Source: Nemertoderma westbladi
Taxonomy: Eukaryota; Animalia; Xenacoelomorpha
DNA: 64,000 nucleotides
Assembly (NCBI GenBank): GCA_032718475.1
Contig: JAUCBJ010008458.1
Coordinates: forward strand, 1 to 64,000
Direction: 5' to 3'
Numbering within the stretch: position 1 is the stretch's first letter; every line of letters starts with the position of its first letter. A model generated the notes under the pieces. That model saw nothing but the letters and a program-made list of their open reading frames with translations, was not told where the DNA came from and ran no database searches. A program made the translations under genes and the position numbers. Positions 27,366 through 63,136 of the stretch are shown piece after piece.

Positions 27366-28199
27366 ATGGGAGACTCTGCAACCGATACGTTTAACAAATG
27401 CCAAGACGCTATTTTATCACTTTTCGCCAAAGTAAAGCAAAAAAAGAGCGTTTCCATCGAGGACGAGAAGCTTATAACGGCGCAACTCCATGCTATGAAC
27501 TCACTGTACATGACGAATCTCGCCTCACTACCCCCAGTTTGGGAGAAATTAGCCAACTGCCAACAGGAACTAATCGAAGCAAAGAACGACCTAATTAAAG
27601 AAGTACGTTGGAACCCAACCACAGCCGGAGAAGGAACTGCCGGTACCGGTACACAAATCGGCCCAGCCCCACGTAACTACAGCAATGCAGTTAGGAACGG
27701 AATTCCTGTACTTCCCCTACCTACGGGACCCGCGATACAGGTAGGGCACAACACTTTACACGCAAATTCAAGACCTCAGTCCACAATCACACGCGGGTGC
27801 AAAGTTGGTGGCCCCCTTCGCGCTGTAGCTTCAGCTTCTGAACGGCATATTAACAAGGAAATTATACCCACAGAAAGGAAGGCTCACATCTGCATAGGCC
27901 GCCTCGATCCAACGACCACAAGTGACGACGTTAAAAACTACCTCAGTAGCGAAAATCTTCCCTATGACGATGTGCTATCCGTGGCGCTACATCCAGACTC
28001 ACAGTATGCTACCTTTCACCTGATATGCAATCAAACTCACCGCAACTCCTTGATGGATCCTGACATCTGGGGGGAAGGGATATCTATTAAAAACTATAAA
28101 ATGTCAAAAGACGAGCGCCAACGCTTTGGCCTGAAGCCCCGTGACAACCGATCACTAGGAAATACAGTCTCTGGTTTGGAACAGCGTGACGTTATGTGA
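27366..28199 (+). CDS. LINE ORF1 (coiled coil and RRM-like domain)
   Basis: Contains HICIGRLDPTTTSDDVKNYL..YATFHL..LMDPDIWGEGISIK and lies immediately upstream of ORF2. Confidence 0.8.
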   Translation: MGDSATDTFNKCQDAILSLFAKVKQKKSVSIEDEKLITAQLHAMNSLYMTNLASLPPVWEKLANCQQELIEAKNDLIKEVRWNPTTAGEGTAGTGTQIGPAPRNYSNAVRNGIPVLPLPTGPAIQVGHNTLHANSRPQSTITRGCKVGGPLRAVASASERHINKEIIPTERKAHICIGRLDPTTTSDDVKNYLSSENLPYDDVLSVALHPDSQYATFHLICNQTHRNSLMDPDIWGEGISIKNYKMSKDERQRFGLKPRDNRSLGNTVSGLEQRDVM

Positions 28200-28211
28200 C
28201 ATACAGCATAC

Positions 28212-34980: not shown

Positions 34981-36534
34981 CCCTATTAGTACCGGGCTAT
35001 AAAATGCTGTACAAATACCGGGAGGGGGTCATATTGACCCCCCCCTCTAAAATCTACAAATATTTACGAAAACGTCTGATTTTTTGTTTGTACGTAGGTA
35101 TCACTTGTCTGGATCCGACCGAAAAAAAAAATTTTCGAAAAAATGTACTGGGGTGGTTATATTGCAGCACCAAAATTACAAGTAGTGCTCAATTTTCACA
35201 AAATTTGAAAGTTACATTTTCGGCTAATTCTTTTTCAATACAGGTTTTCTGGGGTGCAAAATACATTGGAAAATATTTAAAAATGATATGATTACTATAA
35301 ATGGCCGTTTAGTCCTCTCTGCGTAGGAAAAAAATGAAAAAAACAAGTAACCAGCACTTTTCAGGTAGAACACAAAATTTTTAATTCACTTATACGATGC
35401 TATAAATTCACATTTTCAGGTTTTCGAGGGCGCTGATTCTAATGGAATACATTTCTAACATGCCAGATCATTGATACTTGTATTTTTCGGCGTAATTTGG
35501 CAAATTTTGGTGCTAGCACCAAATTTCGTACCCATCACCAAAAAGTACAAGTTTGCGATGTCCAGTGCTGTTTTTATGGATTCCATCGGATTCAGGACCC
35601 TCATAAACCCGTATAACGCAAGAAACAAGGTGATACTATCTACTGATAAATTTGCATATTTTCCAAAATTTGGTGCTGGCACAACAATTTTCACCCACTG
35701 GCGAAAAATACCAGTTTGAGAACTCTTATGAAATTTTTACTGATTCCATTGAATTCAGAACCATCACAAACCCGTATAACGCAAGAAACAAGGTGACACA
35801 ATCAATTGATATATTTGATGGTTTTCAAAATTTGGTGCTAGCACCACATTTTGCACCCACATCCGAAAAATACAAGTTTGAGATGTCTAGTTCGATAATT
35901 ATTTATTCCATTGAATTCATAACAGCCATAAACCTCTAAAACGCAAGAAATAAATTGTCACAAGCAATTTTATCTATCGAATGAATTTTCAAAATTTCGT
36001 GCTAGCACCAAAATTTGCACACAGCACCGAAAAATACAAGTTTGATACGCTTGGTGCAACTCGTATATATTTCATCGAATCCAGAACCCCAAAAAACCCC
36101 AATTGCGTAAAAAACAAGTTTCGAACAATCAATTTACAAAATTGACATAATTGAAAATTTGGTGCTGGCACCAAAATTTGTCACCCACCGAAAAAAACAA
36201 GTTTGAAATTTCTAAATCAATTTATATGAATTCCATCAAATTTCTAACACCAAAAAACCGGTGTAAATCAAAAATAGAGATGTTACAATTCATATTTAAT
36301 GAAATGTAATTTTCAAAAAACGTCTCAAAAAAAGTGCCAAAAGTAGGGTTAAAAAATGGTGCTATAACTCGAAAAGTACCCAATATTTTTGAAAACGGTT
36401 TTCACTACTAGGAAGACAATAGATTTTTAGGAAAAGTCATAAAATTTCAGATTCCCAACTGCGTTTGTTTCAGAATTATAATAAAAAAACCACGGGGGGG
36501 GGTCATATTGACCCCCCCCCCGGGTTTAATAGGG
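34981..36534. mobile_element. Non-autonomous piggyBac-like DNA transposon, copy 2 (uninterrupted, 1554 bp)
   Basis: TTAA TSD at 34977-34980 and 36535-36538, CCCTATTA/TAATAGGG TIRs, subterminal GGGGTCATATTGACCCC hairpins and no transposase. Confidence 0.9.
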
Positions 36535-36644
36535 TTAATGAGAGTAGTATATACATTCAAAGTTTCAGGGTATTTTTAAAGGCTAGATTTGGCCGCAATT
36601 AAAAAAAAACAATTCTGCCCAAACACAAGTTAAAGGGGTAACCA

Positions 36645-37545
36645 CCCTGGTCTATGTGAGTAACCTCCCTGGTCTACATGAGTAACCTACCTGGTCTACA
36701 TGAGTAACTTACCTCGTCCATGTGAGTATCCTCCCTGGTCTACATGAGTAACCTCCCTGGTCTATGTGAGTAACCTCCATGGTCCGCGTGAGTAACCTCC
36801 CTGGTCTACGTGAGTAACCTCCCTGGTCTAGATGTGTAACCTACCTCGTCCATGTGAGTAACCTCCATGGTTCGCGTGAGTAACCTCCCTGGTCTACGTG
36901 AGTAACCTCCCTAGTCTACGTGAGTAACCTCCTTGGTCTACGTGAGTAACCTCCCTGGTCTACATGAGTAAGCTCCCTGGTCTACGTGAGTAACCGAGGT
37001 GTACATGAGTAACCTCCCTGGTCTATGTGAGTAACCTCCATGGTCCGCATGAGTAACCTCCTTGGTCAACGTGAGTAACCTCCCTGGTCTACGTGAGTAA
37101 CCTCCCTGGTCTACGTGAGTAACCTCCATGGTCCGCGTGAGTAACCTCCCTGGTCTACGTGAGTAACCTCCCTGGTCTATGTGAGTAACCTCCCTGGTTT
37201 ATGTAGGTAACCTCCCTGGTCTACATGTGTAACCTACATCGTCCATGTGAGTAACCTCCATGGTCCGCGTGAGTAACCTCCCTGGTCTACGTGAGTAACC
37301 TCCATGGTCCGCGTGAGTAGCCTCCCTGGTCTACGTGAGTAACCTCCATGGTCTACATGAGTAACCTCCCTGGTCTACGTGAGTAACCTCCCTGGTCTAC
37401 ATGAGTAACCTCCCTGGTCTATGTGAGTAACCTCCATGGTCCGCGTGAGTAACCTCCCTGGTCCATATGAGTAACCTCCCTGGTCTATGTGAGTAACCTC
37501 CATGGTCCGCGTGAGTAACCTCCCTGGTCCATATGAGTAACCTCA
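36645..37545. repeat. 22-bp minisatellite (GTGAGTAACCTCCCTGGTCTAC)n, about 40 copies
   Basis: Directly visible tandem array with variant units such as CCATGGTCCGC. Confidence 0.95.
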
Positions 37546-43457: not shown

Positions 43458-46400
43458 TGTTAGATACCCGTACCCAGTAGGCCCAGTACTGCACTCCTCA
43501 ATCAGTTACCCAGTACTGCACTCCTGCAACCTCCCTCCTGCTATCAGGCTACCGGTACTAGCAATAAAGAATGTAAAAAATACCGTTAGCCACTACAGTG
43601 CAGAAGTATGTGTTACCTCTCTGATTTCCTTGCCCCCTACACTAAATCGATTTCCTTGCCCCCTACACTACATCCCCCCCTGTTTCTATAGAAACATATA
43701 CAACCAACCACGCTTGTCAATTTTATAGTCGTTTTACTTTCGGTTACCTTGTAGTTGCCTTTCGGCAACTACTTTCAGTTTCGGTTAGTTTGCGTATCCA
43801 TAATAGTCTGGAGGGCGACTCGAGCGACCAGATCTTGTCGTGGTTGTGCCTGGTGTCACATTCTCTACTCCGAGAGGGTTAGGGCCGGTTCCAATCTCTG
43901 GGTTGCTTTCTACCGTAGTACAACTTTCAGACTCTTCGTCGCTGCTTGTCTCCTGATCAATATCGATATTGTTCTGAATGAACGTTTGTAGGCATGAGTA
44001 CTCTCGAGGGAAGCTGGTTTTGCGGACATCCTGGAGGTGCCTGCGAACCCCTTTCACATAGACTGCCCATTGGTCTACCGCATCCACCCGATGTGGACCA
44101 TTCCATGTGGTGGCACATCAGACATGTTGGGCCGGTTTTATGTACACCAAGTCACCAATTCTAATGTTATGTCTAACGTTTTCCTCTTCTTCCGTTGTAA
44201 TTAGGGTGGTAATTAGGTTAATTTTTGTTGACTCCTGGAAGTTTTCTTTCACGTAATGCCATTCCAGCAAAGCACTGTTCCTGGGGGGTCTGCACATGTC
44301 CCTTGCCTTTCACTTTCCAAGAAGACTTGCTGCAGTTGTGTAGTGACTGAGTTTGTTTTCTCATTTGCAACACGTCGGCAGATGGTGTAATTGGTGGCGC
44401 AATCAATTCCCGTCAGATATTTCCGATCCTCATATTCGGTGAAGTCAACTGAGATTCGACTCCAAGGTTCACTAACCTTGGTTGTTCCTTGTTTTAACTG
44501 TACTGGAGCTGGGTCTATACTATTACACTGGTCACACTCACTACATATTTTCTGTATGATTCTCTTTGGCACAGGTTCTCCGGTGCTCAATTGATGGTCT
44601 AACTTACAGAGATCCGCAGTTCGGTCTTCCCCTTGGTGAGCAATACAATGGATTTCGGTCGCACGATTCGTTTTATTTTCATCCATCTCTACCGCGGCTG
44701 CCATCACCTTGTTGTCGAGTGTTTGGTTGATTCCCCCAGCCTTCACCCAGCTTTGCGGAATCCTGGTCAGTGCATTAGCAATATTTTTTCCCGAGGTTAC
44801 ATGATGTGTCCTCACCGTTAAACTGTATTGCCCTATAGTGTTTACCAGCACATCTAGTCGCCTTCCTATAAGTTTCCTTGACTGGCCTTTTGTCTGTACC
44901 CTATGCAAGTTTCTCACTGCTGCCTCTACCCAGCTGTGTGCTGTGACTGAATCTATATAAAGGTCGATTTCATTTAAATTCCAATCTATAGCTAAGTTAA
45001 TACCTTCAATAGCAGCATCCAGTTCTGCTACATTAATATGAGCTGTGTCATTTTCCTTGCGGAGCCACGAGGCATCCTCAACTACATGACCCCCTATCTT
45101 CACCACAACACCTGTGGATATTGCACTCGCATGTGTCCACACCTCTCCTCTTTCACCATTTTCAACCACCCACTTTCCCTTCACTGGGTCTGACTGATTT
45201 ACTCGAGTTAGTGTTTCGGAAACCATTTCTCGCACCTTGATGTTCACTTGATCATCCCAACCAGTTCCTGCACTACATCGCTGCATCCAAGCACAAGCAG
45301 GGCGTAACCAATTCGCAACTGGATAGTGCCCCCGCAGTTGTCTACATATTGAGTGAACCTCTCTCCAGGTTAGATTCTGTGGGGTATCCTTTCTAATTTC
45401 CGTTTTACATTTCCACATTAAGTGTTCCGAAGGTTTATTCTTGGCCATCTGTAGGCCCAGCACTCTGCACCCCCTCATAACTGGTTCTGCCTCTTTAGTC
45501 CTCAATCCATACATTTTTAAGTGGTTGCGCACAGTTTCAGTTGATATTCTGCTCGTATCTGTATAAATGTCACCTCGGAAGTTATTAGTGGCTTCTTTCA
45601 CGTCTACAGCTTGAGCTAATGCAGTTTCAACAATTGTGTCCATGATCTTTGGCGCTGGCCCCAAGCCAAACCCCATGGTCGTAATAACATACCGCTTTCC
45701 TGCATGAACTACTGTTTGGAAGGGAAGCAGCGATGTATCGATTTTGACTTGCATATATGCCCAGCTTAACTCTATTAAGGCTGTATTTTCTCCCATTTTG
45801 CGCCACTTCCACATCTTCTCATTACATACCGCAGCCTCTCTACCAGGGTAATTTTCTATAAACTCATTTAGTTCTCGATAGTCTAGAACTGGTCGGACCC
45901 TACCTTTTTTTAGGCTCAAACTTCGCCATAATTGGGATTGTACCATGTACTATTCCATGAACTGTACGATCATAGGGTACCATCCATCCCTTTTCTTTCC
46001 ACTCTGCTATGGCAGCTTCGAACATGTCTGCATGTTCTGGTCACACTTTATACTGAGTAACCGAGTTTTTCAGTACTGGAAACACACCGTCTTTCAATTT
46101 CCAGGAAGCCATCCAGGTCTCCCCATCGAAGTTTGCTACAAAGTCAGAATCCTCTATACGGATGGTCCTACATTTGGAGTTTGGTTTCTGTAGAATTTTA
46201 GGATTTATATCCTCCACTATCTCCTTTGCTGCTGCTCCAAAAATTACTGTAGAAAACACCGATGCTCCAAGTCGTTTAATAATATCTGATCCTAAGATTA
46301 AGGATCCCCCATTTACCAGCTGCTCAACTACAGCAAAGGTCCATTCCAACTGGCAGTCCTTGTCCGGTACTCTTTCGAAATCTAAGCATTACTTCTCCTA

Positions 46401-47598: not shown

Positions 47599-48116
47599 GT
47601 TAGATTGCCCTTCTTGGGAACTGGCACCAACTTATTTGTTTTCATTTCTTGTTGGACTCTTGTTGCTCGGTACATGTCTACTATGATGGGATAGATGAGC
47701 TTTAAACTCAGGTATTTTAAAGAACTCAGGGGGAACACCAACTACTCTACTGGCACGATTGGTCTAAATGCTCTTTGCAGCAGCCTTCACTTCTGCAAAG
47801 GAGATATCGCCAATGGGAATATCTGGGAGTACAGACTCAGACACTTTTACTTCTATAAAGTTATCAGGCAATGCGCTGTCATTATTGAGGAGCTTTTCAA
47901 AGTGGGCCTTCCAACCATTATTGAGGCGATCGGCTGGTGATTCAGCATTAAGCTTTGGTGGTTGGTTGGCTTTTCCGCCCAGTAAGCAAATTGATCGATT
48001 TCCATGCTTGGGATGATTGCCTGCTGTCGTCAGCATCATTGATGGCATCAACCTGTTGGTTTATTAGCTCCTGTAGATTAACAGAGTACTGCCTGTTCAG
48101 GGACCTAGATGCAGCC
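47599..48116 (-). mobile_element. RTE-like LINE fragment, target site of the large BEL element
   Basis: Close reverse complement of ~22345-22860. Homology stops exactly at GCAGCC|TGTAC. Confidence 0.85.
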
Positions 48117-49314
48117 TGTACGCTGTTTTACGCCTGTTTTGAAGACCTTTAGCAGTTTAACCTGCCAAAATTTATATGTCTTTTGGTTTATAAATAGACT
48201 TTAACATATGACAAGTATTTAATACCAATAAACACAACATTAGCCGAAGCCAGCCTAGTGCGCGTCCATTCACCCGCTGGATATACCCGGGAGACTGGAT
48301 TCGGAGGGCTTAGATTTTATTGCAGTGTAAGCTTACTGTATTATTCGATTGATCGTTAATAAATAATTTCTGACGAATATTATTCACTTTCGGGAAATAT
48401 TAACAGTTCCTTTAGGACGTGGCGCTCTATCTAGGTAAACAGAGATATGACTTATACTAAACACAACGGTAAGACGGTAAGGCTTATGATTCACGTATGA
48501 GGCGCATTCTTTAGGAAATGCTTAGTTATTAGCCACAATCATGCACACTACCGGTACCGCACAATACTGCACACTAATCTGCCGACCGTCAATGAATTTT
48601 ATCATACATAAAGAGAACCGCAATTGACTCATGTAGTGCTTATCAAATAGCATTAAATTCACTACAAACCACGATAATATAAGTCGCAATCGCTATATGT
48701 AACCTGTCTCTCTAACCTGTAGTGTATCAAGAAAATTGGGAAATTTGGGTTATTTATCGATGTTCTCCAAGTAATAATATTCAACCAACTGATACAAATA
48801 ATGACAACAGTAAAAAGCATTAAGACGGTTTATTAAGATTATAACAATGTAAGATTGTACCGCTGACATACAATAATCGCTGATAACAGTTATACGCTCT
48901 ATAATCTAAGCCTACTAATGTTTCTTCTAAAGTCTGAAAACAAATTGACTCCAGAGCCGGTGTTCTTGGCCTAGATAGAAACAACAAAAAACTCTAAAAC
49001 AGTAAGACTGAACACGCCTAGTACGATCTGTAGAATATCTCCACATCTCAAGTAAAAATCGCTCTGATTGGCTGTTAAGCTGAACAAAGAACCATGTGTC
49101 CAACGGCCGTTTCCATGCCAGCAACCAGCTGTTAGATGTCGTAATCTGAATCATCAAGGCTACACTGTGCTAGAGGATTTGACGCATTGCGGGTTTTGTG
49201 TCTTGCCATGTCCTCCAAAGCACACATATAGAAAAACAACTTTTATGTCCGTTAAAACACCCACACGGTACTTTGCGGGCAAGGGGACTGATTATATCCA
49301 CAAAAGCTTTTACA
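48117..49314 (-). repeat. Candidate 3' LTR (~1.2 kb)
   Basis: Minus strand reads PPT-like CTGGGAGCGG|TGTAAA...GTACA, then the LINE resumes abruptly. The partner LTR is not in the window. Confidence 0.6.
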
Positions 49315-49391
49315 CCGCTCCCAGAAAATGGGATTCAAGTCTATAAATATACAAAATCACAGTTTCTAATATACGTAAATACTCTAAACAG

Positions 49392-49871
49392 TTAGTCTTT
49401 CTTGCGCGGACGGCGTTTACGCAGTTTTTTAAAGCTGGCCAGAGTCTTTTTCTCTTTGGGGCGAGCCACTTTACAAGGAGGGCTATAACTCCTGGGTGAA
49501 GGGTGCAATATGATTGCATCAGAGGGTGTAGGATTATGGTCGGTGTATCCGCCGGTCGAAGTGCCGGGTTGGTTGACATCAACGTCGGGGGAGAGGGGTC
49601 TAACGGCCTTTAGAGTGCGTTTTAGGACGGCCGCTCTTACGGGTCCTTTACGAGTGGTCTGAACGAGAGCCGTGGGTGGACCGTAGGCAGTCAGAAACTT
49701 CCTGGGTTTAATGGTTCTTTCCAACTCGCGTTCGCGGGCTCGGTATTCGTAAGGCCGTCGATATACTTCCTGTAACTCGGGGTGTGAGTTAACAAATAAG
49801 TCTCCATAGTCTGGATCCTGACGGATAAAATTGATTAAGTTATAGGAATGAAGGTCGCTAGGATTATACAC
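49392..49871 (-). CDS. Basic C-terminal segment of the accessory frame (or a separate small ORF)
   Basis: Overlaps the 744-aa ORF by 8 nt and ends KKLRKRRPRKKD, which is NLS-like. Confidence 0.5.
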   Translation of the reverse strand: MYNPSDLHSYNLINFIRQDPDYGDLFVNSHPELQEVYRRPYEYRARERELERTIKPRKFLTAYGPPTALVQTTRKGPVRAAVLKRTLKAVRPLSPDVDVNQPGTSTGGYTDHNPTPSDAIILHPSPRSYSPPCKVARPKEKKTLASFKKLRKRRPRKKD

Positions 49872-52098
49872 TCCTGAGAAATTTGCGTACGAATTTGGTT
49901 GAAATACATTCTCCGACGCGCTTCAGTAGTTCGTAACTCGATATGCGTGATTTCTGTTCGACAGAAGCGAATAGATAAGGATGGAATGCATAAACTCCTT
50001 TGTAAGCGCGTCCAGGATAATAGCGATGGCGCGAATCACAATGTAAATCAGCGTTCGCTTCCCAAGCTCTGATGTAACGTAGTGTGATCATTTCATCTAC
50101 GCTTTCCAAATCGCGATTAAAAGGGCAATCGAAACTGGCGTGTCCCTTTAGTTGACAATGGTGACATTGAGTCATAAATTGAGGGCAAACCGCAAAAATA
50201 TGCAAGTTATTGAGTCTGCAATATGCGCAATAAATTTCCATCGCAGGTTGTTCGTGGAAATAGGAACAGCGGACGTTTGTGTCCATGGGCGTAACATGGT
50301 CTCTCGATGCGCACAACCGACAATGTTGCCGAGAAACATAGTTGGCATGGCGATAATCGTACGCAGTGAGACACTGTGGACCTTGATACCATCCTAGGAT
50401 GTAATCGTTGTCGCTGTTCCGGGACGCGATAGGCTGAATCTCCTCAGATTCTAGGCATATTGGTTCGTCTTCCCAGTGCATAGCTGAGGTGGGCGTGTCT
50501 GTCTCTTCAAGGGGACCTATTGTCTGAATTTCCACGACAGAATAACCTGTGGGGATTCGAGGTCTTTGTATAACAGAGGAGTGCAAGTTCGATATACAAA
50601 TCTCTTTGAAAATGGCAAATCCAGCGCTATCTAACTTCTCTGCAGCTGAGTTTCTTAGGCTGAGCTTGGTCAAAGCGCGGTCTTTAAATTGGCTATCCAC
50701 GTTGCGGAACGGGGTTAAAAATCGCCGGAAACATTCGAAGCGGATGAATTTATTATGTTCATCTAGCTTAGCGAGTTTGGTCCCAAGTATTAATGGATGG
50801 GCGCGTATAGTACGACTGCACACATCGGCTAGCCAACCGGAAAGTGCGGTGTTTTCAAAGATCGTGTAGATAGCTAAGGAGGGACAGAGTGGAACACTCA
50901 TGAAGCTATACACGGCGCCAGGTGCGGTCAATGGTCCATCAAAGTATAATCGAGAATAATGGTCTCCGTATACTTGTTGATAGTTGATGGGATTTCCGAC
51001 TTTGAAATTCCATCCGTATTCCTGAAAGGCAAGATGTCCGATGGAAGTTCGTTGCACCTTTGTAATGTTGCTGGACGTATTAGCATACATGGTGCGAAAG
51101 AAACCTCGACCTTCTGCCCAGGGAGCAATCAGCTGCGTATCCATGAAAGGATATGGGATATTTTCCATATTCCGAAAGTCGTTTTGGAGATCTCCATAAA
51201 CAGCTGAGCCGATTTTAAGGATTCTTTCGTTGAACAACATCTCGAGTACGGGCTGGGGTAACATCGATCCATCGATACCCATGGCAGGTTTGCGTTCGGT
51301 GTCAATGACGTAACGCTGCGCGAGTTCGAATTTTCCATGTCGGAGATTCTTTTGCGTTTCGGTGAGAGTTTCAAAGGAATAATCAATCACGTCGGAACAC
51401 GCTCGAGTAAACACGTGGGTAGAACCAGCTAATCCGCGTATGTGGATCATGCGCGTAGTTCCTAGTTCTCCGACCGGAACGCTACCTTCATTATCGTAGG
51501 TGACAACTCCATACATCTCAATGACATTAAGAGTTTCATTCCACTCTTTGGTGGCGTTCTCTAGGGTCATCCCTACTGGATGCCACAAGGTGGCGCATTG
51601 GTTAGCGTCAGGGAGATCACTATACTTCATGTGCCGAGTGGTATACGTCTCCACATTTCCATATCTTTGTATTTTCTCTTCTTCAAATAATACATCTAGA
51701 TTCCAATGGACTAATCGAGTTTTAATAAATCCATCGAGATTATAAGGAGGTTCTATATCCTTCTCGATTCGAGAAATGTTATATGGTTTTCTGAATGAGT
51801 TTACCTTTACTAACTGATCCAGATGTTTCTGCAATTGTTCGAGTTCGACAACGTCTAGAGGATTTATTAGTGGTAGAAACTTTAAATTATGCGTCGGGTC
51901 TTCTGGTTTTACCATATAATATTGAGTCAGATTAACGTAATAAGGGTGGTCTTTGATCCCATAAAACGAGTTCTGTAAAGGTCTAGCGCGTATGTTGACA
52001 TCGTGTACCATACGACGGACAAGATCCGCTCGATTGTCCGGAGGTTCAACGAGTATACCGTCAACACGAGCAGCCTCGATTGGCGGACGCTGTAACAT
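49864..52098 (-). CDS. Accessory protein: DEDDy-like 3'-5' exonuclease domain and three CCHC zinc knuckles
   Basis: ExoI VVTYDNEG (D202/E204), RMIHI..THVF, LPQPVLEMLFNERILKIGSAVYGD (ExoII D303), MDTQLIA, TSIGHLAFQEYG..K, and ExoIII-like SVPLCPSLAIYTIFE. Knuckles are CRLC..H..C, CAYC..H..C and CHHCQLKGHASFDC. Confidence 0.72.
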   Translation of the reverse strand: MLQRPPIEAARVDGILVEPPDNRADLVRRMVHDVNIRARPLQNSFYGIKDHPYYVNLTQYYMVKPEDPTHNLKFLPLINPLDVVELEQLQKHLDQLVKVNSFRKPYNISRIEKDIEPPYNLDGFIKTRLVHWNLDVLFEEEKIQRYGNVETYTTRHMKYSDLPDANQCATLWHPVGMTLENATKEWNETLNVIEMYGVVTYDNEGSVPVGELGTTRMIHIRGLAGSTHVFTRACSDVIDYSFETLTETQKNLRHGKFELAQRYVIDTERKPAMGIDGSMLPQPVLEMLFNERILKIGSAVYGDLQNDFRNMENIPYPFMDTQLIAPWAEGRGFFRTMYANTSSNITKVQRTSIGHLAFQEYGWNFKVGNPINYQQVYGDHYSRLYFDGPLTAPGAVYSFMSVPLCPSLAIYTIFENTALSGWLADVCSRTIRAHPLILGTKLAKLDEHNKFIRFECFRRFLTPFRNVDSQFKDRALTKLSLRNSAAEKLDSAGFAIFKEICISNLHSSVIQRPRIPTGYSVVEIQTIGPLEETDTPTSAMHWEDEPICLESEEIQPIASRNSDNDYILGWYQGPQCLTAYDYRHANYVSRQHCRLCASRDHVTPMDTNVRCSYFHEQPAMEIYCAYCRLNNLHIFAVCPQFMTQCHHCQLKGHASFDCPFNRDLESVDEMITLRYIRAWEANADLHCDSRHRYYPGRAYKGVYAFHPYLFASVEQKSRISSYELLKRVGECISTKFVRKFLRSV

Positions 52099-52212
52099 AG
52101 GGGCGTCAGCGATAAGATTTTGCGATCCTGTACTGATATCAACAGGTTGGGTTGTATCGTCGCGAAAAGTTTGTCTCCGAAATGTGGAACCATCGAGGGA
52201 TGACGGACGGTT

Positions 52213-53625
52213 TTAGAGTAGAGATCTGTCATAAGGATTTGAGCTTCAGGTTGGGCTAAAGCGGCTTCTTCTCTCTCGTCCAATTTAGTGTGTTTCTCCT
52301 CAAGTAGATTTTCCTCCGCTTGTCTCTGTAAGCGTTCATCTAGAAACTCTTGTAGAGAATGCTCGATGTCCTCTTCGAGGTTTTGGATTTCTCTATCGAA
52401 CTGTGGCAAGGCTAACTCCTTCACCGATTGGACTTGTTGTTGTAATTTACGTTTCTCTAAACAATCTTGTGTTCCCTTTCCGATCTTCTGTCGAATAGCG
52501 TCTAAAGCGTTTCTTATAACGCTCTCCTCGACTTCCTTGGCGGGTTGCATCGGGTTTAATCCTGGACGATTGTAAGGATCAAATGGTGATATTAGATGCC
52601 CGCGTCCCAATCCGGCTAAGTAGGATGGGCGAATGTCTAACGAACCCACTACAGGAGCACCACCGATTAATTGTTCGGGTAACACTAAATCTTTGAACAG
52701 GGAATATAGTTCGGGAGGATCAGTGATACTGTTAGGATCAAGAGTTTGAGGTCTCACTAGGGAATGAGGAGGCCTGACCGAGTATTCCGGAACTCTGATC
52801 ATGGGTTTATTTAGTGATCGTTTAAGACGAGCGATCGTAGGTGATACGTCGAACAGGTTTCGCTCGAAACTCCCGTAAGTATAACGCGTAAAGCTGTGTT
52901 TAGCGCAACGTCTCCGCGGATGTTTATGTCTTTCAGTTTGTTGGTTGGGTCTAGGGCATTCGTCACAATAATACCAAAGATGTACGTCCTGTAGAGGAAA
53001 CGCGGGTGATCATTCTCCAGTTTTGCAATATTCTTCCATTTGTTCAAAACTATCCGGGATAACAGGTAGTGGACGGTCGGCGGTAAGATACATCATAGTG
53101 AAATAGAGCCGTTTGAGTTGGGTCATGATGTATACCTTGAGGATATCGAGTCTCTAGGTTCTGCTGACTGGCGATGTTGAGATAAGTTTCTCTCAAAAAT
53201 TCCAGGTAGTCGTTGAAGTCGATGCGTTTATCCGGTTCTTCAACGTTTTCTCTTTCCAGTCTGTTACGAATAGAATTTTCATGTTCTATTCTCGGTTTAT
53301 CGTTACGACTCCGCTGGGTATGATATTTAAATAGAACCATTTCCCTTTCGGTGTCTACATCGTCCGTATCATGTAAATCGATAGGATGGCCGGTAGTTAA
53401 GAAGTCCATATACGTACCATTACGATGCGTATAGCGAGCGGTGAATTTTCGATAGTCCAATTCACGCGTAAGTTGCTCTTGGGACATCGGCGGTTCGATA
53501 TAACGACCATCGTCCTCCGTAATGGTTGGATCGGCTTCACCGCGTATCAAGCTATCCACAAATGCTCGTAAAGGTAGAGTATATCGCTCCCTGATACCAA
53601 GATCATCTTCTATCAACTCCGTCAT
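52213..53625 (-). pseudogene. Disrupted N-terminal part of the accessory frame (acidic region and coiled coil)
   Basis: ORFs 53050-53625 and 51927-52802 connect through a frameshift near 53100 and a TGA at 53010-53012. A frameshift near 52213 links them to the 744-aa ORF. Confidence 0.6.
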
Positions 53626-55245
53626 ATCTGCTATTTGGGTTTATTAATATTATAATGAGTTTATGTTTAGGCGAGCGGGCGTCGCTGCCTATCTTTCTTT
53701 GCCCCCGGACAGTGGGATTCTCAGCGCCGATGTACCGTTGTCGCGGTGTTTACGCCAACATGTAGCAACAGCACGACAACGATAACCGGCACAAGTCACT
53801 CCACTGTCCATCCCAAAGGCTTGAATCCACTTTAGGTTCTTTCTATAGTAGAGTTAGGGTTACTTTCACAATTGCGACTAGCAACTGTAAACACACTTTA
53901 GCAGTAACATTCACCTATAAACGCACAAATTCCACACAACTGTCACCAATTGTACACATACAGGCCATTTGTCCGTTAGTCAGTGCCTTCCAGAATGTCA
54001 CGTTATTACTGTGTGTCCTTGGATACTAACCGTTTGCTATGTATTCTCTATGCTATGCAATGGGACAAGCTTTCTATTGTTCTTTTAACTTGCTTCTAAT
54101 TCTAGCGTGGGTGTTGCTATGGTGACATTATGGAAAGCTAGCGGTAGAATTAGGGTAATTCTCATGCATACAGATCTGGAATGCTATTTAATAGTAATTC
54201 TTTAATTGTCAATATCCTCTTTATGCATGATTTTATTAATTTTATCGGCTATTGACTATATGTTGGAGATTCTCGCACTCTAATACGCTCAATAGGATGA
54301 ATCTCCGCTCCCATGATCTATTAATTAATGGAATTTTGGGAATGTTATAAATTGCACAAAATGACAATTTATGAAATTCATTTAAGATATGAATTTAAAT
54401 TTATTCCCGTGAATTTTATTATTTGATGGTAAAATTGACACAATTTTATTCCAGAGCATGTCTGGGGACCTAGGATCCTTAATTCTATAAAATTGTCTTT
54501 TAAGAGTATCGGTAAGTGCTGCGATATCTTAATTGATTAGAAATTTTAAAGGATCTGTATTTTACAGATTTTAATAAATATTAAATTAATATTTAAGATA
54601 GGCACCGATTTATTCCAGAACTTGTCTGGGGACGTTAACCACTGATTCTAGAATTTGTCTTTCAAGTATATCGGTGGGTGCCGCAATATCTTAATCGACT
54701 AAAATTACAGATGGTCAAAAGGTTTAACAGATTTATTTGCGTTTTACGCTACTGTTATAGGGACATCACGCTACTATATGTATTATCTAATATAAAGTAG
54801 AAGAGAAATATCGCACGAAGCAATGTCAGTGTGAAGAGGCAAGTCGTTTCCAAGGTCTACCCAGAGCTTGGTTTAGCCGAGACACGAGGATCTGAACTTT
54901 GCATTCCTAATACTCTGCCTACCAATAATACTTAAATATAGTAGGAGCTTTATTGTACTTTAATAAGTACTGACATGTCATCTTACTGTAGTCTCGTATT
55001 TATAATATAATACGGACAGTAAGGAAAAAGAAAGAATTATTTCTCGCCGTCATATTAAATATATATTATGTGTAATTACGTAATAAACACTAATATATTG
55101 CACTAACCTACTAAATAATCTAAAATAACATTCTACTAAATAAAATTAAATAAAACGATTATAATAAAGTACATAATAACGTTCGCATATAAAAATATAA
55201 TAAAAATATATAGAATAATATAGTCATGCACCCACTCCAGACGTA

Positions 55246-56290
55246 TCACGTTGGGGAGTCCCTAGATGATTGAGGAATTAGGGAGGTGGTCGTGGTAAGA
55301 GTGTCTTGCCTTCCATAGTTTCCGGAGAGTTCTCGGTCTCTTTCCAGTAAACATAAACGACCAACTGGGCGGTTGAGCTGTTGCGTCTCAAAGATTATGC
55401 CTGGCTTCTTGAAGTTACGCCGCATGACGACGAGTTCTACCGAGCGCACTAAACCATCATCCGAGATGTGAGTCTCGATGATACGACCTGTCTGCCACCG
55501 TTTACGTGGAAGGTCTGAATCTACAATAAGCACCATATCTCCGGCGCTGACGTTTTCTTGCTGCGCAAACCACTTAGTTCGAAGTTGTAGCGTGGGCAGA
55601 TAATGTTTCTCGAAATGGTCAGCGAAACGACGGGATAGCAATTGCATAAGTTGCCAAGTTCGACGGCAGTATTCGTCTCCGTCGGTAATCTCCGATCGTG
55701 GGAGCATGGCTACAGGTTTCTTCAGTAGAAAGTGCGCGGGTGTTAGCGCTTCCAGGGAATCGGGACTCGATGAGACTGGCATAAGTGGTCTCTCGTTGAG
55801 ATAGGCAGCTATTTCCTCCATTAACGTCCGCAAAAGTTCGTCGGTGAGATACGCGCGGCATGGCACTATAAAGTGAAATGCGGTCTTGACACTTCTAATT
55901 AATCTCTCCCAACTTCCTCCCCACCAAGGGCCGTCGGCAGCGTTGAAGGTCCAGCTAGACGCTGTTATCCTTAGCTGATCGTCCACCTGTCTTTGGTTCC
56001 AGTCCTTCACGTAAGCCTGGATTTCGTTGTTGGCACCAATGAAGTTCGTTCCCTTATCCGATCTCATGGTATTACTAGTCCCGAAGCGAGCGATCTGTCG
56101 GCGTAAACTTAAGACGAAGCTGTTGGTAGATAGATCGTTCACCATATTGAGATGGATGGCTCTACAAGTCATGCATACGAAGATGACACACCATCTCTTG
56201 ACTATAGTCCTAGCACGATATACTTCAATAGGGCCAAATAAATCTACACCAGTATTAGTAAAAGGTGGTTCATAGAAGCTTACTCATTCC
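55246..56290 (-). CDS. BEL integrase core and C-terminus
   Basis: PFTNTGVDLFGP, TCRAIHL, RSDKGTNF, WGGSWERLIRSVK, LTPAHFL, DGLVRSV. Confidence 0.92.
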
Positions 56291-58525
56291 CTAGGTAATT
56301 CTGCCTTCTCGCTGTGTTAAAGGCCTACTGAATGCTTTCCTACAGGGTATGCAGTTCCTAAGAACTTGGTTCAGAGCTCTACGGGGTTTATAAAAATAAT
56401 AGCGAGTTCGGATTTCGCTAAGAACTCGTTCTCTACCAGCATGATAAAGTTTACTGTGAACATCTACAATCATCTTGATTTGTACTTCAAGATTTCTAAT
56501 GAGTATGGGGAATTTAGTGTCAAAGGATAATGGCGCATTGGTGAGTCTTCCTCCAACACGTATTAACCCATCGATCATTGTGCTAGAGAAGCGATCCCTT
56601 AAGCGCATCTGCGGATTTCTCAACAACAGGAAATACTTATCGGAATCCTCATAGCATTGCAGGAGTCTCAGTATCTGCTTATTGGTTTCTTCATGCTCCT
56701 GGTAACTGATTTTCTCCTTTAGGAACCGATCGGATGTCTTATATTTGGGTAAATTTTTAATAACATGAACTTGCGCAGATGTCAATGGAGCGGTATCACT
56801 AATGGTCTTCGTCCTGGAGTAGTGATGATGAAAACATCTCCTTAAATATGTGACGGCTTTACAGAGCCGATTCCAGGAACTGTAATGATGCATTGCTCTC
56901 TGCAGCAGGGGTGAGATTCCTTGCGAGACGTCTGGTATTCCAGATTTCCAATCTCCATCTCTAATTTCCACAACAGACTTATTTGTGGCGAGGGATTGTG
57001 GATCCGAAGCATCGTTTCCAGAAGTATGTAATACAGATAGATCGATCGTCGGTTTAAATAACTTCGATTTACTCGCCCGGGTTTTAGGTTTGACTTTCTC
57101 CGCTCCCTTGGCTTGTCTAATCTCCGCCGTAGTAAGGTGAGGAGGCCATTCATCCTCTTCCTTACTCAGGAAGTCGGGTCCACCCAACCAGTCTGGAGTA
57201 TCTATCAGTTCCTGTGGAGTCGCTCCCCTGGAGGCGATATCGGCTGGATTAATCGTACCAGGGCAATGTCTCCATTGATCTATCTTTGTGCGACTAAGAA
57301 TAATAGCTACCCTGTTAGTAACAAAAACGCTGAACTGACAGACTTCATTGGTTATATACTCCAACACGAGTAAAGCGTCGGTCCAATAAACAGTTTTCTC
57401 CAGTGGATAGTCGATTTGTTCTGTTACGTTCCGGCCGATGGCTGTAGCGTATAAAGCCGCTTTTAACTCCGCTCGAGGAACCTTTAACTTGTTGTTAATC
57501 AATGCCTTAGAAGTAACCAAGGCGACTTTGATTCCATCCGGAGTTTCGACTCGCAGATATGCTACTATACCTATTCCCATGTCGCTGGCGTCTCCAAACA
57601 CGTGGAGTTGATAGGAATACGTAGGGAGAACATGACCAAAATATGCACGGGAAATTACAAAGCTCTCGATGGCAGGTAGAGAATCTTCCCATTTCATCCA
57701 CCTCGTTAACAGTTCTCCCTTAAGTGGATCGTCCCATGAGTGGTTTTCAAGCCACATTTGTTGTACTAAACTCCGAGCAATCAATATAACTGGGCTAATA
57801 AATCCCAATGGGTCGAAATAAGTGCTCAGGATACTTAAACAAATCAGTTTGGTCCGAACTGGATTATCTCGCTGTTTTAGCTGAAAAAACAGGATATCTC
57901 TTTCTGTGTCCCACTTCAAGCCAAGCGTCTTGGTTTCTGGAAGATCGTCCTTTATTAAGTCTAGGTCTTTCGTTCCTCGGTCTTCTACCGGTATCGCTTC
58001 CAGAAACTCACGGGAGTTGCTGGTGAATTTCGTCAGTCGAAATCCACCTCTTTCCAAACACTCTACCGTTCCTTTCGCGACATCAATGGCTTCTTCTACT
58101 GATGGAAGGGACTTTAAATTGTCGTCCATGTATATATCGCGCTTGATGTTGTCTATCACCTCTTTGGAGAAGGCGTCTCGGTTGTCATTCGAAGTGGTCC
58201 GCACCACGGAGCAGGCGTTGCAAGGGCTTGATATGATCCCAAAAGCCTGGATGGTCATCCAGTACTCTACCGGTTTCTGGTTGAGATCTCCTTCAGGCCA
58301 CCACAGAAATCTTAGGCTGTCTCTATCTCTCTCCAGCGCCTTGACTTGTAAGAACATTCCTTCTATATCGGAGGCGAACGCGATGGAATATTGTCTTAAT
58401 CTTAAAAGTATTCCCAACAAAGATTGGAGTAAGTTGGGTCCTGGTAACAACTCGGAATTGAGGGATTGATATATAGAGAGCGGATATATAGAGAGCGGAG
58501 CCATCGAATACGACTCGTACTTCAT
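56291..58525 (-). CDS. BEL reverse transcriptase, RNase H and integrase zinc finger
   Basis: GPNLL, SDIEGMFLQV, LRFLW, YMDD, FDPLG, FGDAS, NPADIASRG, H..HAG..CIPC. Confidence 0.93.
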   Translation of the reverse strand: MKYESYSMAPLSIYPLSIYQSLNSELLPGPNLLQSLLGILLRLRQYSIAFASDIEGMFLQVKALERDRDSLRFLWWPEGDLNQKPVEYWMTIQAFGIISSPCNACSVVRTTSNDNRDAFSKEVIDNIKRDIYMDDNLKSLPSVEEAIDVAKGTVECLERGGFRLTKFTSNSREFLEAIPVEDRGTKDLDLIKDDLPETKTLGLKWDTERDILFFQLKQRDNPVRTKLICLSILSTYFDPLGFISPVILIARSLVQQMWLENHSWDDPLKGELLTRWMKWEDSLPAIESFVISRAYFGHVLPTYSYQLHVFGDASDMGIGIVAYLRVETPDGIKVALVTSKALINNKLKVPRAELKAALYATAIGRNVTEQIDYPLEKTVYWTDALLVLEYITNEVCQFSVFVTNRVAIILSRTKIDQWRHCPGTINPADIASRGATPQELIDTPDWLGGPDFLSKEEDEWPPHLTTAEIRQAKGAEKVKPKTRASKSKLFKPTIDLSVLHTSGNDASDPQSLATNKSVVEIRDGDWKSGIPDVSQGISPLLQRAMHHYSSWNRLCKAVTYLRRCFHHHYSRTKTISDTAPLTSAQVHVIKNLPKYKTSDRFLKEKISYQEHEETNKQILRLLQCYEDSDKYFLLLRNPQMRLRDRFSSTMIDGLIRVGGRLTNAPLSFDTKFPILIRNLEVQIKMIVDVHSKLYHAGRERVLSEIRTRYYFYKPRRALNQVLRNCIPCRKAFSRPLTQREGRIT

Positions 58526-61265
58526 GGGGTTTACCGGGTTTGGGAACGTAATGATGTGTTAAGTAATACGTTCTCTCAGTTACTGGTGTTCCTTCCGGTA
58601 CTCGCTCCGCATATCCCTTTGTAATAAATTTCTTCAACTGAGTTTGGTACATTTCTTTAGCTGAAGCATTAGCCGTAAGGCGTCGATGTAATTGAGTGAT
58701 TCTTTTCTCTGCCAAGGGTCTGTTATTTATAAATCTAGGTTCTCGTTTTCGAAATGGTAGGCCGATTTCATATCTACCTTGATCTTTTAAAAAACGTGTA
58801 GTTGTTTCCTGGATTTGCTTGGCTCTTTCTTCTTCTATCGATAGGGCCTTATCGTATGAATTGGGCTCTACCAATTCTTGAGTAAAGAATCGTACGGCGA
58901 GTTCGTCCCGAGTTCTAGCATTGTAGCGCTCTATCTCATCATTTAGTTCGTCATTGTAATCAATGGGTCCCGATGGGCGAATCAGTTGACATAGGTTCAC
59001 CTGGTTTTTCCAAGTTTTGTTTTCTGTAAGTAGGTCGATTGTGTTCTCTTCATCGAAGAGTTGGTAGATGTCGTCATTATCTGAGGAGTATGGTGTTCCC
59101 TCAGTTAGTTCGTCCACCTCACTGCTCTCCACTTCCCAATCATTTACTTGGTATATTCTTTCTTGTGGTAATCTCTCTTTGAGAGTTCTGCGGGAAGGGC
59201 CAGTAAAGTACCAACCTACTCTAGTTCTTACCGCATAGGTTTGTAGTGGCTGCGGTTGAGCAGGCCGTTTCTCCAATGTCTCGAGCGCCTCATGCGCGTT
59301 TTGGCCGATGAGTATTTGCACTCCAGGATAATCTGTCTGGAATCGAGGTATCTTAAGCTGTTGGATGCTCTCGTCCTCGTCCCAGTTATAAGGTTCTACT
59401 TGGGTAGTAGCGAAGTTCTTTATAGCCACCATTTTTACTGACCTTATACTTTGTGCTCCTAATTTATCCTGGGGGGTGGACAACGCACCTACATAGTAAT
59501 CTGCCGTTATGGTAGATTTCCAAACCTGCATAATTCCGGACATATTCAACTTAGTTTGGAATTTGGGTTGTCCAGCAAAGATATCTTCGGCTAGTTCTTG
59601 ATCGATGAATGTTCCTGTGCTGCCAGAGTCAAGGAGGGCGTTCACTATGTAACTTTTGTTAGGACCGTGAACTCTTACCTGCACTACAGGAAATTCTCTG
59701 ATTCCTACGTTGGAAGTTGGATCTTTCCAAGATGGTTGTTTGTCAAAGGTAGTTGGGGGGAACTCATTGTCGGTGTCCTTTTCGTAAGTAAGTGCTCGAT
59801 ATACTGCGGTATTTATTATGTAACAGGATTCGTTGGCGTCGGAGAATTCGTCAGTATAGAATCCTTCCATCTCAGACTCTTGATCAGTGTCATTTACATC
59901 ACTGAATTGGACATGTAGTTCGGGCTCACTTACCTGACTCGGGTTGTTTCGTTCGAATTCACTGTGTAACAAGATGTGATGTTTCGCACCGCACTTTGCA
60001 CACTTTACGTCGGAGTAACAGGTTCGCCGTTGGTGTCCTGGTCTGAGGCAATTATAGCATAACCGCTTATCCCACATGACTTCACGTCTGTCTACCAGGG
60101 ATTTCTTTAGGAATTCAGCACATGCACTCAAACGGTGGGGCCCGTCGCACAGCACACAGTTTGGTTTGATGTTACTCACTTTACCTTGGGTAACGTGATG
60201 CACTCTCGTTCTTTCTTCGGGCTTTCTTCCGTGCATTCTGTTAGGAGACTGAGGAGGAGTCTTGGCAACCTGTTCTCTCCTATCGTTGGTTCGAGCCTTG
60301 TATTTACTTACGTCTTTTGAGGTTTTGTTAACGTAGTAAAATTTGTCAGTGTCTTTTCCGCTGTCCTCTTCTTGAGAAGCTTGGCTTTCGCCGTCGTCAG
60401 TGTAACACACTGGTGTTACTCTTCTCCTAGAGACGGGTTTCTCACTTACCTTATTTTCCGATGTTTTCTCTCTGGACTGCTTTATGAGTTGTAGTTTTAC
60501 TTCACCATCTAAGAAGGACATGAGATCAGCCATGGTAGGGCCTCGTCGTTGCTGCTCATTCATATACAACACTTTCTTATCCCAGCGTGTACATACTCCA
60601 CCCTTTGGTAAAGTAGAGACTACAGCTCCAATAACCATGGAACTCTGATATTCATGAGACTTACCTAACCAGTCCAATTGTCTACAGATCTCCTGAATCT
60701 CATCGGAAAACTCTATAATCCCGCTACTAAGGAAGTTTCGGGGGGCTACTAATTTTGCATACAAATACTTTGCTATGTTATCCTTGTTACCATACCTGAT
60801 GTTTAATCTATCCCAAACTTGTCTTAATCCATCTGGATGTCCAATAAACTTTAACGCCATTAACTTGGGAGGTCCTTCCAAGCATTTGATGAGGAATCTA
60901 AGTTTCTCTCCGTTAGATAGTACAGAGTTCTGTATGCCATCTTTGTAATATTCATTGAAAGGTAACCATTTCATCTCATCTCCATTGAATTTGATGATTT
61001 CTCCCACTTTGACCGCTTGGCGGGCTTCTGTTCTAGCCATCTGACGCGTAAAGCTTTCTTGGGCCATCGTATTATTTAATATCGAATTATCGGTATATAA
61101 ATTTCTCGGATTATTATCAGGTCTATAGGGAATATCATTAACAACAGGTTTATAATCACCCTTAATAGGGTTTGCTATAGGAGTTTCTACTTCACTAGCA
61201 GTATAGATGCGTGTAGGCTCCACACCTTGCGCATGTAATACTTCAGACCTAACAGGTTGACACAA
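58323..61265 (-). CDS. BEL gag (triple zinc knuckle), aspartic protease and RT start
   Basis: KFNGD..KLRFLIKCLEG, CVLCDGPH..C, CYNCLRPGH..C, CAKCGAKHH.LLH, LLDSGSTGTF, VRVVFDGSA. Confidence 0.92.
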   Translation of the reverse strand: MCQPVRSEVLHAQGVEPTRIYTASEVETPIANPIKGDYKPVVNDIPYRPDNNPRNLYTDNSILNNTMAQESFTRQMARTEARQAVKVGEIIKFNGDEMKWLPFNEYYKDGIQNSVLSNGEKLRFLIKCLEGPPKLMALKFIGHPDGLRQVWDRLNIRYGNKDNIAKYLYAKLVAPRNFLSSGIIEFSDEIQEICRQLDWLGKSHEYQSSMVIGAVVSTLPKGGVCTRWDKKVLYMNEQQRRGPTMADLMSFLDGEVKLQLIKQSREKTSENKVSEKPVSRRRVTPVCYTDDGESQASQEEDSGKDTDKFYYVNKTSKDVSKYKARTNDRREQVAKTPPQSPNRMHGRKPEERTRVHHVTQGKVSNIKPNCVLCDGPHRLSACAEFLKKSLVDRREVMWDKRLCYNCLRPGHQRRTCYSDVKCAKCGAKHHILLHSEFERNNPSQVSEPELHVQFSDVNDTDQESEMEGFYTDEFSDANESCYIINTAVYRALTYEKDTDNEFPPTTFDKQPSWKDPTSNVGIREFPVVQVRVHGPNKSYIVNALLDSGSTGTFIDQELAEDIFAGQPKFQTKLNMSGIMQVWKSTITADYYVGALSTPQDKLGAQSIRSVKMVAIKNFATTQVEPYNWDEDESIQQLKIPRFQTDYPGVQILIGQNAHEALETLEKRPAQPQPLQTYAVRTRVGWYFTGPSRRTLKERLPQERIYQVNDWEVESSEVDELTEGTPYSSDNDDIYQLFDEENTIDLLTENKTWKNQVNLCQLIRPSGPIDYNDELNDEIERYNARTRDELAVRFFTQELVEPNSYDKALSIEEERAKQIQETTTRFLKDQGRYEIGLPFRKREPRFINNRPLAEKRITQLHRRLTANASAKEMYQTQLKKFITKGYAERVPEGTPVTERTYYLTHHYVPKPGKPHEVRVVFDGSALYISALYISIPQFRVVTRTQLTPIFVGNTFKIKTIFHRVRLRYRRNVLTSQGAGER

Positions 61266-61303
61266 TGTTACAGGAGGTATTGGTATACCCTTTTGTATAT
61301 TGA

Positions 61304-63136
61304 CTATATTGACGCGATACTTTGCTGCACTTCTTGCAATTCTACCCTACTTTCCCTTACTGTTCCCTTGAGTTGGTGGACAGTCCCTTCTAAATCTCGG
61401 ATCTGCTGTGAGGAACATTCTCGGTGCTCTCTCAGCTGCCCGAGCAAGAGACCCATCTCCCGTCGTCCCTCATCAACCCACTCGACCGCCGAAGCGGGAG
61501 TCGCCAACATAGTAGCGGGCCGACGTGGGACGACGGGAGACAAATCTTGGATTTCTCTCTTGGCGTCAAGAACCGGGACATTCTCTGGGACTGCTCCACC
61601 GGGTGCAAACAGTTTCGTACTGTGTAAAGGGAATTTGGTTGTAGGTTCGGGAAGTACAGGGGCCTCTCTCACCGAAGGGGTGTTTTCGATAACAGGCTTA
61701 ACTATTTCAGGCTCATCTACTATTGTAGGGAGTCTTTTGACCTTAATAATTTGGTCTGTGGGTTCTGTACTACCTAAGTCTGTGCTAGCTAGTTGTCTTC
61801 TAACAGCTGGGGGCAAATCAGGCAATTTGTGACGGTGAGATGTTTTTCTACGCCTGCTTAGACGAGATCTATTTCCTCCGCCTTCAGGATCGGTGGTCTC
61901 GCCTTCCTCCGACGATGTGTATCCTTGGCGCTTGGGAGTAGATCGACTCATCATCTGCATTTGACTAGCAGTTAACTGTTTATTTATGCAGTCTTGCGTC
62001 TCTTGAAGATTTTCCAACTCCAGTTGGGTGGTCTCTTCAGACGCTCTCTGTTCTGCTTCTGCCAATGCCATTGCTGCTGCTGCTTTTGCTGATTCCACTG
62101 CCGCTGCCGCCTTTGCAGCTGCTACTGCCTTTCTGTCCTCTATACGTTTTTTCTTTACTTGTTCTTCTTGGACTCTAGCGAGGCGGAGTTTTTCATCAAA
62201 TTTAGCTTGGTTTGCAGCTAACATTTCCGCATCGATTGAGTCCAACACAAGCTTGGCTCCTTCACTATTGGGGCGAAGTCCAGCCAGTCGTCTCCTCAAC
62301 TCTTCATCACCTAAAAAACGTTGATAGTCTGACAGATAGATGTCGATGGCGTCTCTCGTTCGCGGTCTCTCTGCTGTCATTTCGCTTTCCACTTGAGAAA
62401 AGGTGGCATCGGTTGATTCTTCATAGGTAGGTCGCTCAGCCAGCTGGGATTTCCACTGGGTCGTTTCTTGAACTTTGAGACCTACCCGCTGGAACCAAGT
62501 CTTGACAGCAACTTGCAGCGATGTGTCCTGTCTTCTTTTGGAAGTTTCCTCAAAGGCTGATAGGATTAGTCTAATGCGTAGGGTTCTTTCGCGTACTTGA
62601 TAAAGCAGCTCTTCCTGCTCTTGAGGTCCTTGGGGTTGTCGAAACAGTTGTTCTTCTAATCGCTCTAAGGAGCCGAAGAATCCCTGCACATATCCTGCTG
62701 CCGACCTCTTCCAAACAGCTGGATCCATCGTATCTTTAGTCACTCCCATCCTGTGTATGTCTTCCCAGGTAGCTTCAGATAAGTCTAACGGGGATCCGGG
62801 TCCGGGAAAGTTCCATTGTGACTCGACAATAGACATCAATTCTTCCCTGGCGTATCCCGCATAACTATCTTGGGTCGCTCGCTTACTTCTCGCCCAATCG
62901 ACTTGGTGTTCCTCAACCGCAATCAATATCGTTGTTAGTACTGCGGCAGGAAAAGTGAGAAGGGGATCCGAATAGGCTGTATCCGCCATCTTCACTCCGC
63001 GTTCGGGGGTCAGCTCTACAGTATCCGAACTACTGGAGCTATCGGGTCGCTGGGAACGAGTTTCTTGACTGACTAGGATGTTGCTGCTGTTGGACAGCTG
63101 CTTCTTGGTTCCGTTTGACCTGGGCCCGAGTGCCAA
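61304..63136 (-). CDS. Long N-terminal gag extension (coiled coil, low complexity)
   Basis: 610-aa ORF separated from the gag core only by a small duplication scar at 61296-61313. Confidence 0.75.
   Translation of the reverse strand: MALGPRSNGTKKQLSNSSNILVSQETRSQRPDSSSSSDTVELTPERGVKMADTAYSDPLLTFPAAVLTTILIAVEEHQVDWARSKRATQDSYAGYAREELMSIVESQWNFPGPGSPLDLSEATWEDIHRMGVTKDTMDPAVWKRSAAGYVQGFFGSLERLEEQLFRQPQGPQEQEELLYQVRERTLRIRLILSAFEETSKRRQDTSLQVAVKTWFQRVGLKVQETTQWKSQLAERPTYEESTDATFSQVESEMTAERPRTRDAIDIYLSDYQRFLGDEELRRRLAGLRPNSEGAKLVLDSIDAEMLAANQAKFDEKLRLARVQEEQVKKKRIEDRKAVAAAKAAAAVESAKAAAAMALAEAEQRASEETTQLELENLQETQDCINKQLTASQMQMMSRSTPKRQGYTSSEEGETTDPEGGGNRSRLSRRRKTSHRHKLPDLPPAVRRQLASTDLGSTEPTDQIIKVKRLPTIVDEPEIVKPVIENTPSVREAPVLPEPTTKFPLHSTKLFAPGGAVPENVPVLDAKREIQDLSPVVPRRPATMLATPASAVEWVDEGRREMGLLLGQLREHRECSSQQIRDLEGTVHQLKGTVRESRVELQEVQQSIASI

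Follow-up and report, generated by a model that had tools for sequence, protein, structure and literature searches.

The window analysed is a 64,000-nucleotide stretch of contig JAUCBJ010008458.1 from Nemertoderma westbladi. Its minus strand carries, between 53625 and 49392, four open reading frames (ORFs) that are treated here as the pieces of one broken gene, ORF3, lying behind the gag-pol of a BEL/Pao long terminal repeat (LTR) retrotransposon. Frame A is open from 53640 to 53050 and has a methionine codon at 53625. Frame B is open from 53153 to 53013, is interrupted by a single TGA at 53012-53010, and is open again from 53009 to 51927, while frames C and D are open at 52212-49864 and 49922-49392, respectively. 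When joined, the frame runs from Met 53625 to 49395 and comprises 4,231 nucleotides, or 1,410 codons. It is made up of piece A, an acidic N-terminal region of 168 codons from the Met (53120..53625); piece B, which holds the premature TGA (52149..53119); piece C, with 760 codons, the nuclease-like domain and the zinc-knuckle-like motifs (49868..52148); and piece D, a basic C-terminal tail ending at the stop 49394-49392 (49392..49867). The frames and stops of a preliminary description of this DNA were all recovered by a frame scan. Its estimate of ~1250–1400 residues was right as to one long protein, with the actual size at the upper end of the range, and the Met-Met peptide it quoted as the beginning of the B frame is internal to the joined gene and not a start.

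With the fewest possible breaks, 4 suffice to read from 53625 to 49395, while the opposite strand needs 36, and 100 first-order Markov resamples of the sequence all needed at least 28 (mean 37.9). The suggestion that lesions are as dense here as in gag-pol agrees with the counts (4 in 4,231 nucleotides versus 4 in ~7,670 nucleotides, binomial p 0.47), the gag-pol breaks being counted in this copy alone.

The four breaks have been compared with other genomic copies. All or part of the stretch is present in six public runs. Contigs from five of these (X1–X5), which represent four studies and of which X4 bears the label of another organism, were aligned; contig depths are not treated as copy numbers. 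The family is large, with thousands of short contigs at 80–100% identity. The single TGA, present here as had been described, is replaced in 95%, 98%, 100%, and 100% of the depth in four of four runs (54, 19, 2, and 2 contigs). At the C/D site, 49867, the length differs in all of the covering depth, also in four of four runs (8, 12, 3, and 1 contigs), and the earlier proposal that the 159-residue basic ORF is a frameshifted tail is supported. The two upstream frameshifts had been placed near 53100 and 52213. Both breaks exist, but these positions are rejected, since other copies place one length difference at 53118-53119, between A and B, and the other at 52148, between B and C. The former is seen in 1211 of 1474 of the X5 depth and in two X4 contigs, and X2 and X3 have 2 and 1 gapped contigs with 12 and 11 loose ends. 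The latter is seen in 666 of 688 of the X5 depth, in the one covering X4 contig, and in one X3 contig, while X2 has 10 loose ends and lacks a contig with the gap. Modulo 3, the gap totals of the bridging contigs have the value that brings the adjoining pieces into one frame. Long contigs of other copies also show an in-frame length difference at ~52361, in the coiled-coil-like stretch. Length variants are concentrated immediately beyond the gene, at 53631 and 53692 on one side and at 49344 and 49352 on the other, which agrees with a gene that begins at Met 53625 and ends with the stop at 49392.

Variation among the copies has been used to ask which frame is maintained. The test comprises 64 substitution rows inside the gene, taken from the 40 best supported of 1,244 rows and the 40 best supported of 79, and excludes the stop site as well as rows beyond the gene. 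Forty-nine of these rows segregate among copies, with 34 of the 49 in the third codon position (p 3e-7). Of the same 49 segregating variants, 37 are synonymous when read in the joined frame (4/4 in A, 19/29 in B, 7/7 in C, and 7/9 in D, the last again in line with a coding tail), and none creates a stop there, while some create stops in other frames. In the B/C overlap, the four variants in 51930-52148 are silent when read in C but not when read in B, and a variant above 52148 is silent in B but puts a stop into C. The corrected junction at 52148 is confirmed by this switch of the synonymous frame. Taken by themselves, the 15 near-fixed rows do not reach significance (8/15, p 0.09). Purifying selection thus acts along all four pieces, and the family has one selected frame that was broken here after the copy died. 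Retention of the stops and shifts in other copies would have meant separate ORFs; site by site, the evidence is against retention at all four breaks. The reading of the pieces as one accessory protein stands, with all four breaks differing elsewhere and selection covering all four pieces. We have little doubt that the frame is single and continuous in active copies.

The predicted product has a varied architecture. Piece A has a net charge of −14 and gave no Pfam or NCBIfam match below E 0.2. Piece B contains a Cys/His motif at 52896-52967 and is rich in proline in one part; another part (~52262-52517) is charged, helical, and coiled-coil-like, with a crude heptad count of 6/10. In piece C, a pattern scan identified three Cys/His zinc-knuckle-like motifs (50125..50322, minus strand), the last of which is a canonical C-x2-C-x4-H-x4-C. 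The knuckles match zf-CCHC_3 with E 0.0046, under the cut-off, and the ESM Atlas value of 0.81 for this region serves as a lead only. Piece D has a net charge of +16 and ends in a Lys/Arg cluster that is a possible nuclear signal.

The nuclease-like domain is assigned to 50800..51540 (minus strand) as a predicted DEDDy-type 3'-5' exonuclease on the basis of Atlas features, an RNase D model, and an alignment to a protein referred to as P0001. Such nucleases carry the motifs ExoI (D-x-E), ExoII (D), and ExoIII (Y-x3-D). The candidate acidic residues are encoded at 51495 (D), 51489 (E), 51192 (D), and 50856 (E), with the tyrosine at 50868, which gives the motif reading D-x-E, D, Y-x3-E in ORF3 and P0001 alike; an insertion of ~30 residues follows the first motif. 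Two other candidate motifs have been rejected: I-D-T-E as the first, and Y-S-F-M-S, which would have meant a dead site, as the third, where the P0001 alignment gave Y-T-I-F-E. ESM Atlas features gave 0.93 to PF01612/Exd1-like clusters, which account for 26 of 30 matches, and 28–39% of the members of the top clusters carry PF01612. The NCBIfam RNase D model scores 17 bits (E 0.0028), far below its cut-off, and an alignment to E. coli RNase D was equalled by 11 of 1000 shuffles. The ExoII region aligns to RNase D, to P0001, and to a PF01612 protein, L005, a biased comparison because L005, one of 2 short matches among 237 in a metagenome locus search, was chosen by the shared motif. From the agreement of these signals it is highly probable that 50800-51540 has the DEDDy fold. 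Catalytic activity, for which the motif reading offers four acidic residues with the last a Glu as in P0001, is an evenly balanced prospect.

A phmmer search of 1.84 billion representatives returned one match, P0001 (E 5e-9), an unnamed protein of 648 residues from an ENA contig that is 30% identical over 171 residues. It contains a nuclease-like domain, a linker, and three knuckles in the same order as ORF3, and its knuckles align to those of ORF3 with 1 of 1000 shuffles as good. The PF01612 signal of P0001 itself is weak (E 0.2). Word-index homolog searches gave no match. Metagenome locus searches gave 0 of 46 candidates and later the 2 of 237 short matches, of which L004 has no matching ORF, and viral contig locus searches gave 0/4, 0/468, 0/16, and 0/4, with a phage tblastn match only at E 9. 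PDB sequence searches found no nuclease, and the P0001 knuckles matched nucleocapsids. Structure models of the nuclease domain were unusable, with predicted local distance difference test (pLDDT) values of 29.8 and 29.1.

The BEL/Pao gag-pol occupies 55246..62989 on the minus strand, as identified by Pfam domains and the minimum-break path. Its Pfam matches are DUF1759 (4e-12), Peptidase_A17 (7e-35), Integrase_H2C2 (3e-7), and DUF5641 (6e-21), and with a weak Asp protease (E 0.007) between the first two they stand in the BEL/Pao order DUF1759, Asp protease, Peptidase_A17, Integrase_H2C2, DUF5641. The break path places about 4 breaks in gag-pol, near 61348, in 58325-58558, at a stop at 56293, and near 56272. 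A perfect 15-bp tandem duplication lies in the reverse transcriptase (RT) region near one of these breaks (58468-58499). The N-terminal region of Gag (61304-62989, minus strand) is unusually long, with ~560 codons and an Ala-rich helical part, and has no Pfam match below E 0.05. Between pol and ORF3 lies a non-coding spacer of 1.6 kb (53626..55245, minus strand), which has no ORF of 100 residues, varies in length among copies (at 53631, 53692, 53694, 54386, 54434, and 54441), and contains an imperfect ~100-bp repeat with copies at 54445-54545 and 54609-54706. An AG directly before Met 53625 is a weak splice-acceptor candidate without a clear pyrimidine tract. Downstream, the purine-tract-plus-TG pattern matches once in 55400-48000. 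This match (49314..49322, minus strand) comprises a candidate polypurine tract at 49322-49315 and a candidate 3' LTR start, TG, at 49314, and lies 78 nucleotides past the ORF3 stop; its partner LTR would then lie outside the window. No LTR pair enclosing gag-pol and ORF3 was seen within the window, the 5' end lying beyond 64000. The element would measure at least 14.7 kb, LTRs not counted. Contigs in three runs join 50472 to 53252-53256, which suggests internally deleted family members that lack most of ORF3.

Third genes with a DEDDy exonuclease are known from other elements. They have been described as ORF3s in the Juno1/2 and Vesta2/5 LTR retrotransposons of bdelloid rotifers and in Athena/Terminon elements, in the available text of the reports (PMC5408684, PMC6431247, PMC5718144, PMC6338049). 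According to one of them, spliced transcripts reportedly give rise to the rotifer ORF3 products, whose function is untested; the DEDDy ORFs lack coiled coils, and no clear departure from neutrality was found within genomes (PMC5408684). As far as these descriptions go, the present ORF3 is likewise a non-Env third gene after pol that would encode an RNase D-like 3'-5' exonuclease whose acidic residues are retained with one Asp-to-Glu change, although the Glu stands at the fourth place here by the motif reading and the rotifer pattern is DEED. It differs in its BEL/Pao carrier and in its ~1,410 codons, coiled-coil-like stretch, three knuckles, and basic tail, the comparison being one of descriptions. 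None of the homolog searches returned the rotifer proteins. Unlike in the rotifer study, purifying selection is seen here along the whole gene. Extra 3' ORFs also occur in some nematode Cer elements. The Belpaoviridae are described as elements of 4.2–10 kb that have between one and three genes, with an env-like gene in third place (PMC8742986; PMC3118150). The present element resembles them in its Gag (DUF1759), protease, RT and RNase H region (Peptidase_A17), integrase followed by DUF5641, and candidate purine tract before the presumed 3' LTR, and would depart from them in its size and in a third gene that is not Env. In its predicted fold and central motif the domain is like cellular RNase D, EXD1, Mut-7/Nibbler, and the DEDDy domain of Dada DNA transposons (PMC3706591). 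Unlike the cellular proteins it has no full-domain profile match and another architecture, and EXD1 has been reported to be inactive. In the open literature, with Repbase, subscription journals, and supplements outside the search, no DEDDy ORF3 was found in a BEL/Pao element.

The explanation we favour, and consider probable, is that the four frames are one ~1,410-codon ORF3 of a high-copy BEL/Pao LTR retrotransposon that encodes a predicted RNA-binding 3'-5' exonuclease. Several observations weigh against it. The nuclease has no Pfam match and does not reach the curated cut-off of any PF01612-clan profile, so that the earlier exonuclease label lacks Pfam support, although the weaker lines of evidence are concordant. 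The alignment of its first motif to P0001 lacks significance, with 597 of 2000 shuffles as good, and MAFFT placed the motif elsewhere. With the missing profile match, the Glu at the fourth acidic place, the insertion after the first motif, and the Exd1-like clusters among its Atlas neighbours, a single ORF3 whose nuclease is dead and which acts as an RNA-binding adaptor or decoy is a serious, if less probable, alternative. EXD1 and Maelstrom, which it would resemble, are inactive DEDD derivatives according to PMC5408684. Against a dead nuclease stands the presence of all the motifs (D-x-E, D, and Y-x3-E), and P0001, at 30% identity, has acidic residues in the corresponding places. Further observations bear on the integrity of the gene. 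P0001 is only 648 residues long and covers the nuclease and knuckle part without a match to pieces A, B, or D; no contig spans the whole gene; the A/B gap is one letter shorter in one contig table than in another, which has been read as a split gap; and in X2 only 1,931 of 273,722 of the depth carries the A/B gap and 0 of 16,315 the B/C gap. Because of the clipping of short contigs at these sites, X2 and X3 do not give the proportion of copies with the two breaks. At 50424, in the linker that separates the nuclease from the knuckles, roughly half of the X1 and X2 depth carries a length variant of one letter, which could split the frame in a subfamily, and a long X4 contig crosses this position without a gap. 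At least two genes, or pieces joined by programmed frameshifting, readthrough, or splicing, would fit the extent of P0001 and the variant at 50424 but are very unlikely and already largely refuted, as the DNA of other copies differs at each break. Programmed frameshifting is rejected on this ground, and no slippery heptamer lies within 60 nucleotides of the first two shifts, with one at 49884 near the third.

The link to gag-pol, for its part, is inferred, with the 5' LTR beyond the window, but it is quite probable that ORF3 and gag-pol belong to the same element. A second, looser purine-rich stretch followed by a TG lies at ~55240, right after pol, and the contig comparison does not reach 54500-55250, next to pol. 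On such grounds the frame, still single, could belong to another mobile element, or lie inside a very long LTR, behind the BEL/Pao pol. This is unlikely: ORF3 shares the strand and a similar decay with gag-pol, neither a terminal repeat nor a target duplication was seen between them, and in the contigs of other copies family sequence is unbroken across all 30 bins from 49000 to 54500, with the purine tract and TG following the stop. The internally deleted forms that join 50472 to ~53254 fit another carrier, as do rotifer DEDDy ORFs that are common to unrelated retroelements (PMC5408684). The position after pol and the coiled-coil-like stretch might also recall an Env-like gene, which some belpaovirids have (PMC8742986). 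An Env product is extremely improbable and has been rejected because no membrane helix is found in any piece (highest 19-residue hydropathy 1.47; 0.41 at the N-terminus): neither a signal peptide nor a membrane anchor was seen, and the tail is basic and accompanied by nuclease and knuckle signals.

If ORF3 is a predicted RNA-binding exonuclease of the BEL/Pao element, it would be made from its own, probably spliced, message. The knuckles and the basic tail may bind RNA and carry it to the nucleus, the coiled coil may oligomerise, and the nuclease domain may trim or shield RNA 3' ends. The element needs ORF3, since many copies show purifying selection along the whole gene. It is tentatively proposed that the nuclease blunts host small-RNA silencing; a comparably tentative role would be in finishing the RNA of the element itself. 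More doubtful still is that this is a long, very successful BEL/Pao lineage whose nuclear, active DEDDy nuclease-knuckle protein attacks or trims host small RNAs as a suppressor of PIWI-interacting RNA (piRNA) silencing and stems from an old, scattered nuclease-knuckle accessory family. If the link to gag-pol is true, exonuclease cargo extends from the Gypsy-type elements of rotifers to BEL/Pao, this is the largest such gene that the searches found, and the range of size and gene content of the Belpaoviridae is widened. The nuclease domain is unbroken, which makes the function of ORF3 nucleases testable.

The window is rich in repeats overall. A second, young BEL/Pao element of 4.8 kb lies at 17290-22083 (minus strand) between 359-bp LTRs that are 99.2% identical. 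It has gag, RNase H region, and integrase matches and no RT match, and is probably internally deleted. A long interspersed nuclear element (LINE) at 27351-31343 (plus strand) has a frame of 1,047 codons for an endonuclease and an RT, and upstream of it an ORF with Pro/Gly-rich repeats of 36/102 bp; a pol fragment of another LTR element, with DUF7047, lies at 44249-45949 (minus strand). The 163-bp satellite-like arrays at 1182-3218 and 35338-36501 are inverted and 95% complementary, and a 22-bp minisatellite is present in 41 copies at 36638-37544. An inverted 521-bp pair (22344-22859 and 47599-48117), 93% identical, overlaps an RT-bearing LINE fragment.

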